In this document: piece after piece, positions 2,590-20,111 of the stretch
How positions within the stretch are numbered: the stretch's first letter is position 1
Layout of the letters: each line of letters begins with the position of its first letter
Assembly (NCBI GenBank): GCA_000004985.1
Contig: GG738950.1
DNA length: 20,111 nt
Direction: 5' to 3' (one strand)
From: Naegleria gruberi
Taxonomy: Eukaryota
Notes under the pieces: model-generated
The model's database searches: none
What the model was told of the DNA's origin: nothing
Seen by the model: only the letters and a program-made list of their open reading frames with translations
Program-made: the position numbers and the translations under genes

Positions 2590-3018
2590 NNNNNNNNNNN
2601 NNNNNNNNNNNNNNNNNNNNNNNNNNNNNNNNNNNNNNNNNNNNNNNNNNNNNNNNNNNNNNNNNNNNNNNNNNNNNNNNNNNNNNNNNNNNNNNNNNNN
2701 NNNNNNNNNNNNNNNNNNNNNNNNNNNNNNNNNNNNNNNNNNNNNNNNNNNNNNNNNNNNNNNNNNNNNNNNNNNNNNNNNNNNNNNNNNNNNNNNNNNN
2801 NNNNNNNNNNNNNNNNNNNNNNNNNNNNNNNNNNNNNNNNNNNNNNNNNNNNNNNNNNNNNNNNNNNNNNNNNNNNNNNNNNNNNNNNNNNNNNNNNNNN
2901 NNNNNNNNNNNNNNNNNNNNNNNNNNNNNNNNNNNNNNNNNNNNNNNNNNNNNNNNNNNNNNNNNNNNNNNNNNNNNNNNNNNNNNNNNNNNNNNNNNNN
3001 NNNNNNNNNNNNNNNNNN
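2590..3018. other. assembly gap (429 N)
   Basis: Uninterrupted run of n. The ORF-track entries 2540..3031 (+) and 2562..3059 (-) are translations of Ns, not genes. Confidence 0.99.
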
Positions 3019-3043
3019 AGACTATCTATAGTTATATATAAAA

Positions 3044-5092
3044 ATGGTATTTGAAGCAAGAATAGATTTACCTACAATTGAATTAAATAGTAAATTATCA
3101 TTGGCAGAATTTATAATTGAAAAATGTAGAGAACATGGTGATAATATTGCCATGATTGATGGTACTTCACCTGATCCAAATTTACCTAATTGTACATTAA
3201 CATATAATCAAATGGCTGATAACATGTTAACTATTGGTAATAATTTAATAGATCAATTTAATATTAAAAAAGGAAATGTTATTGCTATGATTTTACCAAA
3301 TATACCTTTATTTCCATGTATATTTCATGGTATTGGTTATACTGGTATGTTTTTATACATTTATTTTATTAATTTTATTAATTTATTAATTTTATATTTT
3401 TATTTTATATTTTTTTTAATTTAATATTATATTTAATATTTAATATAATAGGTGGTATTATTACAACATTAAATCCATTATATAGTGTTGAAGAAATTAA
3501 TAATCAATTAAAAGATTCTAATGCTTGTATGATGTTTACATTACAAACATTTTTAGAAAAAACAATTTTAGCCTGTAAAGGAACTAATGTTAAAAATATA
3601 TTTGTATTAAATTATCAACCATCTGATCAATTTAATAATTTATTAAATGAAAATGATTTAATTAAATTAATTGATGCTAAAATTTTATTAGCAAAACAAA
3701 ATGTTGAAATGAGAAAAATTGATATTAATCCATTAGAAGATTTAATTGCTTTACCTTATTCATCTGGTACAACTGGTATGTTTTTAATTTATTTATTTTA
3801 ATATTTTTAATATTTATTTAATATATTTGTAATTTAAATATTAAATAATTTATTTATTTATAATATTTAATAATATAAATAGGATTATCTAAAGGAGTTT
3901 GTTTAACACATTATAATTTAATTAGTAATGTACTTCAAATTGGAGCTAAATATGAAAAATTAACTAAAAATGATGTAATTGTAGCATTATTACCATTTTT
4001 CCATATATATGGAATGACAGTTTTATGTAATTTAGCTTTATATGAAGGTAGTAAGGCAATTACAATGGCTAGATTTGATTTGGAAACATTTTTAAAAATA
4101 GTTCAAAATTATCAAGTGACTAGAACACATTTAGCACCTCCAATTATTTTAGCATTAGCAAAACATCCAATTATAGATAAATATAATTTAACATCTATGA
4201 AATATTGTTTAAGTGGTGCTGCTCCTTTATCTTCTGATGTTTCACAATTACTTTCTAATAGATTAGGTGTTATTGTTAAACAAGGTTATGGTATGACTGA
4301 AAGGTAATTTTTATTATTTAATTTTTTTATTTATTATTTAATTTTATTATTTAATATTTAATTTTAATTATATTTAATAATATTTAATTTAATATTTTAT
4401 AGTTCACCTGTTGTATCAGTATGTGGAGATACAAGTGATTTAATTAAAGATGGATCATCTGGATTATTAGTTAATAATACCAAATTAAAAATTATTGATA
4501 CAGAAACAGGTAATGAAATTACTGAATATGGACAAGTTGGTGAATTATGTTTTTCAGGACCACAAATAATGAAAGGTTATTTAAATAATGAACAAGCAAC
4601 TAAATCAACTTTAATTGATGGTTATTTACATACTGGTGATTTGGGTTATATTGATCAAGATGGTTTCATTTTCATTGTTGATCGTTTGAAAGAATTAATC
4701 AAATATAAGGGTATTCAAGTACCACCATGTCGTATGTACATTGTTTATTTTATACTAATAATATTTAATAATATATTACAATAATATATTTAAAAATAAT
4801 AATAATAGAATTGGAAGGTATATTATGTAAACATCCAAAGATTCTTGATTCAGCAGTTATTGGAGTACCAGATGAAGAAGCAGGTGAATTACCAAAAGCC
4901 TTTGTTGTTCTTCGTCCAAATGAAATCATGACAGAAGAGGAAGTTATGGAATTTGTTTCCCAATTTGTAACTCCACAAAAGAAGATTAGATTGGTTGAAT
5001 TTATTCAGGAAATTCCAAAATCAACTGCTGGTAAAATATTAAGAAGAATTTTAAAACAAAGAGAATTGGAAAAATTAAAGAATATTCAATAA
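3044..5092 (+). CDS. 4-coumarate-CoA ligase-like / acyl-CoA synthetase (AMP-binding, adenylate-forming superfamily), 5 exons, 552 aa
   Basis: Exons 3044-3344, 3452-3775, 3883-4303, 4403-4731 and 4809-5092. Introns are 3345-3451 (107 nt), 3776-3882 (107 nt), 4304-4402 (99 nt) and 4732-4808 (77 nt); all are GT...AG, >85% AT, and each junction restores the frame. Family motifs are present: the AMP-binding signature YSSGTTG|LSKGV across intron 2, GYGMTE|SSPV across intron 3, YHTGDLGYIDQDGFIFIVDRLKELIKYKG, and a C-terminal domain GVPDEEAGELPKAFVV...IPKSTAGKILRR that aligns closely with firefly luciferase and 4CL. ATG 3044 sits in an aaaaATG context and the stop is TAA 5090-5092. The N-terminus FEARIDLPTIELNSKLSLAEFI fits the 4CL N-terminal pattern. 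Confidence 0.85.
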
Positions 5093-5276
5093 TAAATTAA
5101 ATAATATTTTATACTTTATTTTACAGAATTTCAAATAATGGAGTTCTTACTTTTGGAATAATTTGGATAGATTTGAATTTGGAAATTTTGATTAAAATCA
5201 AAACTTATTAGATTAAAAGTGACTTGATTTCATTGTGTTTTCATTTTTGATTTATGCTTTTTGGCGATTTCTTCGA

Positions 5277-5606
5277 TTAAATCAACTTCACTCTTTGTAA
5301 TACCGAACGAGGGGATGGAAAATCCTCGATCCAAATCCCACGCTTTGCAGATGGATTGTTGGATCCATCCGCAAAGCCAAAATACCGTGTGATGTTGTGG
5401 ATCCTGTTTGGCGGAGGAGCCGCGTGGGATTTGGATGGCGGATTTTCCATCCCCTCTACCGAACCTATTTCCCCAGTTTTTTGTATTTTGGGTAATTCTT
5501 TCTGAACATCTCGTAAAATTGCTCTCACAATTTGTTGTTGTTTGATCTTTTCTTGATGATACTGTTCGTAATCAAATTCATCCTCTTGTTCAACAGGTTG
5601 TGCCAT
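5277..5606 (-). CDS. small acidic hypothetical ORF (MAQPVEQEDEFDYEQYHQEKIKQQQIVRAILRDVQKELPKIQKTGEIGSV...LQRVKLI) carrying an in-frame 156-bp insertion
   Basis: Minus-strand ORF, first ATG at rc 5604-5606 in an aaaaaaaaATG context; the track's 5624 start is a TTG. The stop is TAA at rc 5277-5279. With the 5309-5464 segment (element plus one duplicated-site copy) removed, the ORF reads as a 58-aa protein. With it present it reads 110 aa, because the insertion is 52 codons and happens to contain no stop. Whether the small ORF is a real gene is uncertain. Confidence 0.25.
   Translation of the reverse strand: MAQPVEQEDEFDYEQYHQEKIKQQQIVRAILRDVQKELPKIQKTGEIGSVEGMENPPSKSHAAPPPNRIHNITRYFGFADGSNNPSAKRGIWIEDFPSPRSVLQRVKLI
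5301..5464. mobile_element. MITE-like non-autonomous DNA transposon copy: 148-bp element (5309-5456) with 35-bp terminal inverted repeats, flanked by a perfect 8-bp target-site duplication TACCGAAC
   Basis: The left terminal repeat is 5309-5343, gaggggatggaaaatccTcGatccaaatcccacgc. The reverse complement of the right one (5422-5456) is gaggggatggaaaatccGcCatccaaatcccacgc, so 33 of 35 match. Immediately outside, 5301-5308 and 5457-5464 are both TACCGAAC, a direct repeat. The internal 78 bp are GC-rich, contain a nested 12-bp hairpin (ctttgcagatgg...ccatccgcaaag), and have no coding capacity. The element is much more GC-rich than its surroundings. An 8-bp target-site duplication is typical of the hAT, P and Merlin superfamilies. 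Confidence 0.55.
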
Positions 5607-5695
5607 TTTTTTTTGTAATTCCAAATCTGAAATCCAAATTACTCTTAGAATTATTCATTTTAAGATTTACCTTTCAAAAATTTCCAACTTTAAAA

Positions 5696-5793: not shown

Positions 5794-5999
5794 CTTCTCT
5801 TCTGTCATTGACTAAGATTCAATCAGAACCTACATGTTCATCAAATATTCAGAACCTTCAATCTCAATCTCAAACCTCAATTAGAAACTCCTTTTCAACC
5901 TAAACAACCACAACAATTAAATCTCTTCTAGATGATTTCGATACAGTAATTGATCACTGGTATATTCCTGACAATAAGAAAAATACACTCAACCTTATT

Positions 6000-12004: not shown

Positions 12005-12010
12005 GGGGTT

Positions 12011-12041
<31 letters not shown>

Positions 12042-12077
12042 TGCAGAAGGTCTAGGGTTCGATTCCCTATGACTCCA
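12005..12077 (+). tRNA. tRNA-Ala(UGC): tRNA-Ala (anticodon UGC)
   Basis: 73-nt cloverleaf. Acceptor GGGGTTA pairs with TGACTCC and carries the Ala identity pair G3:U70; the discriminator is A. The D arm is AGCTCAGTTGGTAGAGC, an A-box match. The anticodon arm is TCTGC-TTTGCAT-GCAGA with TGC. The T arm is TAGGG-TTCGATT-CCCTA. Confidence 0.85.
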
Positions 12078-12159: not shown

Positions 12160-12219
12160 TCCCGTGTAGGATACCTGGCTTTCACCCAGGAGGTCCGGGT
12201 TCAATTCCCGGCATGGGAG
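12160..12219 (+). pseudogene. tRNA-Glu (UUC)-like sequence with a 12-nt deletion of the D-stem 5' half and D-loop (probable tRNA pseudogene)
   Basis: The sequence TCCCGTG-TA-GGATA-CCTGG-CTTTCAC-CCAGG-AGGTC-CGGGT-TCAATTC-CCGG-CATGGGA-G is 60 nt. The acceptor stem, the anticodon arm with TTC, the variable loop and the T arm (B box GGTTCAATTCC) all match eukaryotic tRNA-Glu. Only 5 nt (GGATA) lie between position 9 and the anticodon stem, where about 17 are expected, so the A-box region is missing. TTTTT at 12229-12233 follows. It lies 82 bp downstream of tRNA-Ala on the same strand. Confidence 0.5.
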
Positions 12220-12881: not shown

Positions 12882-12962
12882 CGCGGTCTACAGGATTCGA
12901 ACCTGTGCGGGTCGCCCCAATTGATTTCTAGTCAATCACCTTAACCACTCGGTCAAGACCGC
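12882..12962 (-). tRNA. tRNA-Ser(AGA): tRNA-Ser (anticodon AGA)
   Basis: The reverse complement reads GCGGTCT-TG-ACCGAGTGGTTAAGGT-GATTGACTAGAAATCAATT-GGGGCGACCCGC (long variable arm)-ACAGGTTCGAATCCTGT-AGACCGC-G. It is 81 nt and matches eukaryotic tRNA-Ser class II architecture. The anticodon loop CTAGAAA has AGA at positions 34-36. The minus-strand T-run TTTTT (plus-strand AAAAA at 12875-12879) sits 2 nt past the 3' end. Confidence 0.8.
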
Positions 12963-13789: not shown

Positions 13790-13870
13790 CGCAGACTGCA
13801 GGATTCGAACCTACGAAGGTTTCCCCAACAGATTTCAAGTCTGTCGCCTTAACCACTCGGCCAAGTCTGC
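13790..13870 (-). tRNA. tRNA-Ser(UGA): tRNA-Ser (anticodon UGA)
   Basis: The reverse complement reads GCAGACT-TG-GCCGAGTGGTTAAGGC-GACAGACTTGAAATCTGTT-GGGGAAACCTTC (variable arm)-GTAGGTTCGAATCCTGC-AGTCTGC-G, 81 nt. The anticodon loop CTTGAAA has TGA. A minus-strand T5 (plus-strand AAAAA at 13779-13783) follows the 3' end. Confidence 0.8.
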
Positions 13871-15986: not shown

Positions 15987-16033
15987 GTTCTAAAAGTGCT
16001 ATGTAATAAAAATTTCATGGCTCGCCACGTTTA

Positions 16034-16104
16034 CCGTCTCGGGAGGAATCGAACCTCCGTCAATGGATTCAAAGTCCACTATGCTACCATTACACCACGA
16101 GACG
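16034..16104 (-). tRNA. tRNA-Gln(UUG): tRNA-Gln (anticodon UUG)
   Basis: The reverse complement reads CGTCTCG-TG-GTGT-AATGGTA-GCAT-A-GTGGA-CTTTGAA-TCCAT-TGAC-GGAGG-TTCGATT-CCTCC-CGAGACG-G, 71 nt, with a perfect 7-bp acceptor stem. The D-arm and anticodon arm closely resemble eukaryotic tRNA-Gln (GGTGTAATGGT.AGCA...GGACTTTGAATCC). The unusual feature is C1:G72 at the start of the acceptor. A minus-strand T5 (plus-strand AAAAA 16010-16014) follows. Confidence 0.7.
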
Positions 16105-16317
16105 AGCACATTCATTTTGAAATTTTAACATTCATATTTAATATTCTTTTATCATTTTCTTGTTAAGCTCTATTCGCTACTATTATCTATTCGCATTCCA
16201 TCGATCTGTGGCCAGATCACGTTTCAAAGTTTCATATTAGGTCTTTTGATATTGAGAATCTTGTTGGACAACAATGCATTTCCAGCAAATACACAACTCC
16301 TGAAAAAAAGAAACAAC

Positions 16318-18321: not shown

Positions 18322-20111
18322 TTATTCTTCACCAATTTCATTGTGACCAATATTAAGTGATGTTAATTGTTTCATTTCACTTATGTATTTGGATCCTTCT
18401 ACACCAATTTGATTGTAACCAATATTAAGTGATGTTAATGATTTCATTCCACTTATGTATTTGGCTCCTTCTACACCAATTTCATTGTAACCAATATTAA
18501 GTGATGTTAATTGTTTCATTTCACTTATGTATTTGGATCCTTCTACACCAATTTGATTGTAACCAATATTAAGTGATGTTAATGATTTCATTCCACTTAT
18601 GTATTTGGATCCTTCTACACTAATTTCATTGTGACCAATATTAAGTGATGTTAATTGTTTCATTTCACTTATGTATTTGGATCCTTCTACACCAATTTGA
18701 TTGTAACCAATATTAAGTGATGTTAATGATTTCATTCCACTTATGTATTTGGCTCCTTCTTCACCAATTTCATTGTGACCAATATTAAGTGATGTTAATT
18801 GTTTCATTTCACTTATGTATTTGGATCCTTCTACACCAATTTGATTGTAACCAATATAAAGTGATGTTAATGATTTCATTCCACTTATGTATTTGGCTCC
18901 TTCTACACTAATTTGATTGTAACCAATATTAAGTGATGTTAATTGTTTCATTTCACTTATGTATTTGGATCCTTCTACACCAATTTCATTGGAATGTATA
19001 TCAAGTGATGTTAATTGATTCATTTCACTTATGTATTTGGATCCTTCTACACCAATTTGATTGTAACCAATATTAAGTGATGTTAATTGTTTCATTTCAC
19101 TTATGTATTTGGATCCTTCTACACCGATTTCATTGGAATGTATATCAAGTGATGTTAATGATTTCATTTCACTTATGTATTTGGCTCCTTCTACACCAAT
19201 TTCATTGGAATATATATCAAGTGATGTTAATTGTTTCATTTCACTTATGTATTTGGATCCTTCTACACCAATTTCATTGGAATGCATATCAAGTGAAGTT
19301 AATTGATTCATTTCACTTATGTATTTGGCTCCTTCTATACCAATTTCATTGGAATATATATCGAGTGATGTTAATGATTCATTTCACTTATGTATTTGGA
19401 TCCTTCTGCACCAATTTGATTGGAATGTATATCAAGTGATGTTAATTGATTCATTTCACTTATGTATTTGGCTCCTTCTATACCAATTTCATTGGAATAT
19501 ATATCGAGTGATGTTAATGTTTCATTTCACTTATGTATTTGGATCCTTCTACACCAATTTGATTGTAACCAATATTAAGTGATGTTAATTGTTTCATTTC
19601 ACTTATGTATTTGGATCCTTCTACACCAATTTCATTGGAATGTATATCAAGTGATGTTAATTGATTCATTTCACTTATGTATTTGGATCCTTCTACACCA
19701 ATTTGATTGGAACAATATTAAGTGATGTTAATTGTTTCATTTCACTTATGTATTTGGATCCTTCTACACCAATTTCATTGGAATGTATATCAAGTGATGT
19801 TAATTGATTTCATTTCACTTATGTATTTGGCTCCTTCTACACCAATTTCATTGGAATATATATCGAGTGATGTTAATTGATTCATTTCACTTATGTATTT
19901 GGATCCTTCTGCACCAATTTGATTGGAATGTATATCAAGTGATGTTAATTGATTCATTTCACTTATGTATTTGGCTCCTTCTATACCAATTTCATTGGAA
20001 TATATATCAAGTGATGTTAATGATTTCATTTCACTTATGTATTTGGATCCTTCTGCACCAATTTGATTGTAATGTATATCAAGTGATGTTAATTGATTCA
20101 TTTCACTTATG
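18322..20111 (-). CDS. leucine-rich-repeat protein (24-aa RNI-like LRR units, LTSLNIGYNQIGVEGSKYISEMKQ), C-terminal part; gene continues beyond the right window edge
   Basis: Minus-strand stop at rc 18322-18324 (...NIGHNEIGEE*). A continuous 329-codon ORF runs 18322-19311 and a 103-codon ORF runs 19790-20101, both made only of 24-aa LRR units with the pattern L..L.I..N.IG.EG.KYIS.MK., in which the conserved Leu, Ile and Asn positions of a typical LRR are clear. The intervening 19312-19789 is the same repeat but carries four 1-nt indels that break the frame. There is no start codon in the window. Confidence 0.6.
18325..20111. repeat. 72-bp tandem repeat array of about 25 units, with a 144-bp higher-order period toward the 3' end of the gene, coding for the LRR units
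   Basis: The consensus unit ttcacttatgtatttggatccttctacaccaatttgattgtaaccaatattaagtgatgttaattgtttca recurs head-to-tail from 18325 to the window edge. Units alternate between ...gttaattgtttcatttcac (EMKQ) and ...gttaatgatttcattccac (GMKS). The four 144-bp pairs nearest 18322 are nearly identical, and the upstream units are more diverged. Confidence 0.9.

Follow-up and report, generated by a model that had tools for sequence, protein, structure and literature searches.

Duplications of 8 bp at the target site fit transposons of the hAT, P and Merlin types and some MULEs, among others. Members of the hAT group usually carry the terminal motif YARNG and insert at a loose target consensus, nTnnnnAn. 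Non-autonomous DNA transposons with terminal inverted repeats (TIRs) and target-site duplications (TSDs) of 3-9 bp create introns in many protists (PMC9860276). In Rickettsia, the palindromic elements known as RPEs are palindromes of about 150 bp that occur within ORFs, where translation can turn them into in-frame peptide insertions (PMC10969869). For Naegleria gruberi, only a small fraction of the repeats is classifiable as known transposable elements according to a 2025 study (PMC12344493). Our literature searches found no described Naegleria MITE, introner or TIR element, and the literature searched made no mention of ENA project PRJEB11402.

The window analysed here, a stretch of 20,111 bp, is the whole of one small N. 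gruberi scaffold, and what it contains is consistent with a eukaryote whose introns are short and AT-rich. Like eukaryotic MITEs, the element described below is small, lacks transposase coding, has long TIRs, folds back on itself, is flanked by a perfect TSD and shows empty-site polymorphism. Unlike them, it is strongly GC-rich in an AT-rich genome and is located inside a coding exon and not in a gene flank.

The original prediction placed a 148-bp GC-rich unit with near-perfect TIRs at 5309-5456, and repeat analysis agreed with it, recovering both the inverted ends and a perfect 8-bp repeat around them. The left arm, GAGGGGATGGAAAATCCTCGATCCAAATCCCACGC, occupies 35 nt at 5309-5343, and the right arm at 5422-5456 is complementary to it at 33 of 35 positions (94%); the gap between the two arms is 78 nt. 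The termini read GAGGG.../...CCCTC, with GAGGGG as the longer reading at the start. Within the window the outer 17-mer of the TIR was found only at the two ends of the element, on opposite strands. Shuffled sequence gave a mean of 0.02 matches per shuffle, and two matches were obtained in none of 100 shuffles. GC content of the 148-bp core is 52.7%, compared with 27.8% for the window as a whole, where intergenic GC drops to 5-15%. The tetranucleotides GGAT and ATCC each occur seven times in the core. As RNA, the element strand folds as a single long hairpin (-93.2 kcal/mol, z = -11), and the corresponding DNA fold has -50 kcal/mol (z = -9.6). An internal sub-hairpin at 5342-5377, with 15-nt arms at 5342-5356 and 5363-5377 that are 93% complementary, was seen in the folds. 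Translations of the element had no match in Pfam, and the 148 bp contain no transposase ORF.

The direct repeat that had been claimed for the flanks was found by direct-repeat search exactly where expected. The 8-mer TACCGAAC (GTTCGGTA on the gene strand) lies at 5301-5308 and again at 5457-5464, and both copies abut the TIR arms exactly. By a rough estimate for this base composition, an identical 8-mer on both flanks would arise by chance with a probability of about 1e-5. A separate likeness was seen around the target. The region 5294-5307 (AGGTTCGGTATTACAAA, which codes for RFGITK) is similar to part of the small gene's 5' leader at 5612-5625 (AGATTTGGAATTACAAA), which also encodes RFGITK in the extended frame of the environmental contig introduced below; a match that good is expected about twice by chance in such a region, as a rough estimate.

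An empty orthologous site, the check named in the original prediction, was found in L001, an 862-bp environmental Naegleria contig from ENA metagenome assembly ERZ929261 that encodes the protein P0001. L001 is 96.2% identical to the window across 757 aligned nt and is collinear with about 6085-5150, a span that takes in promoter, coding region and 3' flank. On the gene strand, the site in L001 reads GGGGAAATAG-ATAAAAG-GTTCGGTA-TTACAAAG, while the window reads GGGGAAATAG-GTTCGGTA-[148 bp]-GTTCGGTA-TTACAAAG. L001 thus has a single copy of the 8-mer and has no element. The contrast with the two flanking copies in the window is the pattern classically left when a transposase inserts an element at an 8-bp staggered cut. 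This empty site is direct evidence, at the level of sequence, of transposition with an 8-bp TSD, and the comparison of the two alleles shows that the insertion is polymorphic among close relatives of N. gruberi. Naegleria-like genes are also present on L129, another contig (4 kb) of that sample.

A further reading, in which L001 would be a cDNA made from spliced transcripts of the window allele, was rejected. L001 is not a spliced transcript of that allele because promoter and 3' flank are present in it, together with 7 nt that are missing from the window. Further features of L001 and the window were seen outside the insertion site. The first 105 nt or so of L001 repeat its promoter and 5' leader (about 470-570) in inverted, slightly diverged form and are not collinear with the window; they stem either from a hairpin chimera of the metagenome assembly or from a genuine inverted duplication. 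Upstream of the gene, the window has 35 bp (5804-5838) that are absent from L001. The A-run before the ATG (5607-5615) has 9 A in the window and 8 in L001. The extra A puts an upstream ATG (MNNS...) out of frame in the window; in L001 this ATG is in frame, which gives a 92-aa call.

The empty site also bears on readings in which no transposon is involved, namely a native coding palindrome, a hairpin ncRNA or miRNA-like gene, or an assembly or contamination artefact. The hairpin is indeed very stable, the element is present as a single copy on a small gapped scaffold, and there is a weak Rfam match to a plant miRNA precursor model. That match was the only one in Rfam at a permissive cut-off, and no family reached threshold; its score was 25 bits, where the gathering threshold is 184, and it reflects the hairpin shape. 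A native feature does not account for an empty orthologous site together with an exact 8-bp duplication, a precise target duplication is not something that an artefact creates, and searches of plasmids, phages, prokaryotic genomes and viral contigs gave nothing similar to the element. An ancestral coding palindrome had been named as the finding that would undermine the transposon, and it did not come true. The palindrome is excluded as an old part of the gene because the empty site has one 8-mer and the element is flanked by two. Taken together, we regard an origin other than transposition as highly improbable.

The element lies within an annotated gene. The minus-strand ORF that crosses it (5277-5606, ATG at 5606 and stop at 5277) is identical to XP_002668806.1 / EFC36062.1 / NAEGRDRAFT_54594 (UniProt D2W4D8), a 109-aa 'predicted protein' of N. 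gruberi. In order, this CDS consists of 47 genuine codons, 3 codons from one TSD copy, about 49 from the element, 3 from the other TSD copy and 7 that are frameshifted. The genuine N-terminal part (MAQPVEQ...KTGEI, 5466-5606, minus strand) was delimited by protein match, alignment and codon usage. It differs from the empty allele by one amino acid, V5A, and its codon-usage score is +10.3 in frame compared with -12 and -23 in the other frames. The conserved C-terminal coding segment, FGITKSEVDLIEEIAKKHKSKMKTQ*, is located at 5230-5307 on the minus strand. Its 78 nt (5307-5230) are identical between the window and L001, and in the window allele its frame differs from that of the upstream ORF. 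As far as the two alleles can tell, the 109-aa protein XP_002668806.1 is a read-through chimera of gene and transposon that has lost the conserved C-terminus.

The original prediction described the insertion as an in-frame exonisation that had extended a 58-aa ORF instead of truncating it. The element and one TSD copy together have 156 nt and contain no stop in the minus-strand frame of the ORF, and this part of the claim held. The length before insertion comes to 57 aa and not 58 by arithmetic (109 - 52), and judged from the frame of L001 it was about 75 aa (P0001, 75 aa from MAQP). The alleles differ by a net 149 nt, and not 156, because L001 has 7 extra nt (ATAAAAG, gene strand) directly upstream of the target 8-mer. 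The downstream frame is therefore shifted and the C-terminus lost, so that the sequenced allele is frameshifted by the missing 7 nt, even though the inserted 156 nt are open in the frame used. In the window, the junction without the 7 nt falls at 5464-5465 (minus strand) in the L001 alignments, and its position is ambiguous by 1-2 nt owing to AG microhomology. The L001 protein continues ...KTGEI-DKRFGITKSEVDLIEEIAKKHKSKMKTQ (75 aa from MAQP), its C-terminal run being ...GEIDKRFGITKSEVDLIEEIAKKHKSKMKTQ, and the window ORF ends LQRVKLI* at 5277 with the seven frameshifted codons. As judged from the two alleles, it is the 7-nt loss and not the insertion that breaks the gene. Without that loss, the insertion would have brought an in-frame gain of 52 residues and left the tail in place, because the element is also open in that frame.

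Which of the two frames is the real one was assessed by codon usage, with log-odds trained on about 2,500 codons from confident genes of this window. In a control the true frame was top-scoring in 98.7% of windows from real genes. The last 22 codons of L001, in the TKSEV...KTQ frame, scored +7.4, compared with -10.5 and -9.3 in the other two frames, and +7.4 was reached by just 0.6% of 22-codon non-coding windows. An AlphaFold model of P0001, built from the single sequence (mean pLDDT 70), has a helix at 30-60, a loop at 61-71 that holds the insertion point, and a helix at 72-88 which is the disputed tail. We conclude from these results that the ancestral protein probably had two helices and about 75 aa, and that the element would have landed in the loop connecting them. 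The polarity of the change is read from one empty allele together with coding-potential arguments.

The 7-nt difference sits just outside an intact TSD copy, a position that ordinary integration does not predict. It would be expected there if it were tied mechanistically to a transposition event, and the two alleles can accordingly be read in the reverse direction. The element would then be ancestral and would have been lost by the environmental strain, with the 7 nt left as a footprint; the ancestor would have had 57 aa and the insertion would have been in frame. The choice concerns the ancestral ending, which would be ...GEIDKRFGITK... if there was both an insertion and a deletion, and ...GEIGSVLQRVKLI* if the 7 nt are an excision footprint. 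A footprint of +7 nt is typical in size for elements with 8-bp TSDs. However, footprints normally retain TSD sequence, and ATAAAAG has no resemblance to the duplicated GTTCGGTA. Moreover, the frame made by the 7 nt is coding-like over 22 codons and encodes a predicted helix, which is unlikely to arise by accident (the 0.6% given above). We therefore think excision very unlikely. Under the preferred reading, an insertion and a loss of the 7 nt that may have come before, with or after it, palindrome-stimulated slippage is a plausible source of the loss.

Homologues of the small protein are scarce. A search of 5.8 billion sequences returned only P0001 besides the protein itself, and exhaustive HMMER with the 109-aa model against 1.84 billion cluster representatives likewise recovered P0001 and the model itself and nothing more. 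Among these 1.84 billion representatives, the element in this frame was contained in no other predicted protein. The small protein had no Pfam match in any of its versions.

Like introners of other protists, the element is a non-autonomous TIR DNA transposon with a TSD in a protist coding exon (PMC9860276). If it were spliced out as a spliceosomal intron, a near-normal protein with the conserved C-terminal helix would be made. Splicing at any of three GT...AG pairs that enclose the element would restore the conserved frame (5459-5293, 167 nt; 5464-5286, 179 nt; 5464-5271, 194 nt), and the sequence of the C-terminal coding segment is fully preserved (100%); TIR/TSD introners are documented elsewhere in protists (PMC9860276). 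On the other hand, about one third of random GT-AG pairs would restore the frame, and the candidate splice sites are poor in comparison with local introns. The candidate donors GTAGAG and GTTCGG differ from those of the six introns read in the window, whose 5' ends are GTATGT, GTAAGT or GTAATT. The 3' ends of introns were TAG in all five that were read (four in the 4-coumarate-CoA-ligase-like gene and one in the malic-enzyme gene), and these five introns are all extremely AT-rich. The hairpin of -93 kcal/mol would hide splice sites, the predicted products of splicing are all absent from a collection of 15 billion proteins, and the introner papers found make no mention of Naegleria. Removal of the element by splicing seems unlikely to us.

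The core of the element is open in five of the six frames. It contains no TAA, TAG, TTA, CTA or TCA trinucleotide, one TGA, and one TA dinucleotide. Five open frames were obtained in 0 of 20000 mononucleotide shuffles, 3 of 20000 palindrome-preserving shuffles and 28 of 20000 dinucleotide shuffles. The gene predictor read straight through the element because it is nearly stop-free. This state may simply follow from a build of GGAT-type motifs, the motifs being candidate transposase-binding repeats, or it may come, as for RPEs (PMC10969869), from a survival bias for copies that are tolerated in exons. A bolder possibility is a GC-rich Naegleria family of stop-free palindromic MITEs that reside in coding exons, either as translatable peptides, which would make them the eukaryotic equivalent of RPEs, or as new introns, and whose lack of stops on both strands would be selected and would not just follow from GGAT-rich composition; we hold this to be improbable.

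Like RPEs, the element is open in most frames and is inserted in a predicted inter-helix loop. Unlike RPEs, which are bacterial and unrelated in sequence, it is known from one copy, and the host frame here is broken by the accompanying 7-nt loss. The host is the eukaryote N. gruberi, and a TIR pattern with 24 specified bases had no match in 185,579 prokaryotic species genomes. The likeness to RPEs is functional only.

The same TIR pattern had no match in IMG/VR viral contigs, and plasmid and phage BLAST gave no match to the element. The 17-mer of the TIR had five matches in IMG/VR, which is chance level. In metagenome contigs, the matches listed were chance single arms of 17-23 nt, with no second arm among them. 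No second copy of the element was found within the 20-kb window or in the 4-kb L129, and no transposase is encoded in the 20-kb window. Like non-autonomous elements of the hAT group, the element has an 8-bp TSD, although such a duplication is not exclusive to hAT, and it has short repeated subterminal motifs (GGAT/ATCC) that are candidate transposase-binding sites. Unlike them, it has GAGGGG ends and not YARNG, and its target fits one of the two specified nTnnnnAn positions in either orientation (TACCGAAC / GTTCGGTA).

The small gene is convergent with the 4-coumarate-CoA-ligase-like (4CL) gene, which ends at 5092. Other genes in the window encode a malic enzyme, an M17 aminopeptidase and BTB, DUF4116 and LRR proteins. 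Six tRNA genes are located at 1293-1364, 12005-12077, 12160-12219, 12882-12962, 13790-13870 and 16033-16105; the one at 12160-12219 was called by Rfam only (46 bits, 60 nt) and not by ARAGORN, and could be a shortened gene or a pseudogene. A second, unrelated inverted-repeat unit lies at 1533-1945, downstream of a tRNA-Pro gene by about 170 bp. It is AT-rich, 413 bp long and has 34-nt arms (ATAATTACAGTAATTTTATAACTTAATGTCGGTT and its reverse complement) matching at 33 of 34 positions, with no clear TSD; it may be another non-autonomous TIR element. Tandem genes with 24-residue LRRs occupy the minus strand from 18322 to 20101, up to the scaffold end. They are part of a large LRR family of N. gruberi, whose relatives are spread over many scaffolds of this species, and similar LRR proteins occur in metagenome bacteria, some of them in Ank/LRR-rich genomes resembling those of endosymbionts. 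An assembly gap of 430 N at about 2590-3020 lies just upstream of the 4CL-like gene. Being small and gapped, the scaffold may represent an alternative haplotype, with the same region lying on a larger scaffold as well.

In our view the 148-bp unit is likely a non-autonomous cut-and-paste (class II) transposon of the MITE type that disrupted a small gene, the 109-aa model being a read-through product. A transposase supplied in trans would recognise the 35-nt inverted ends, and possibly the repeated GGAT/ATCC motifs too. It would make an 8-bp staggered cut at GTTCGGTA, within the coding region of a gene for a small Naegleria-specific two-helix protein, and gap repair would leave the 8-mer duplicated. 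With the 7 nt abutting the duplication missing in the sequenced allele, translation would cross the element in another open frame and meet a stop 7 codons past it, so that the conserved C-terminal helix would not be translated. The published 109-aa model is thus probably the product of a disabled or altered allele and not an adaptive exonisation. The insertion is an ordinary and apparently uncatalogued MITE-like polymorphism, and the element is probably a further example of a known transposon type.

The reference-proteome entry XP_002668806.1 / D2W4D8 is shown by these comparisons as a chimera of gene and transposon with a wrong C-terminus, an instance of GC-rich stop-free elements in AT-rich genomes being taken into gene models. 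The polymorphic site is usable as a PCR marker for strain typing. For N. gruberi itself, the locus provides sequence-level evidence of recent cut-and-paste DNA transposon activity in the lineage, and the element would be an entry point toward finding an autonomous partner.
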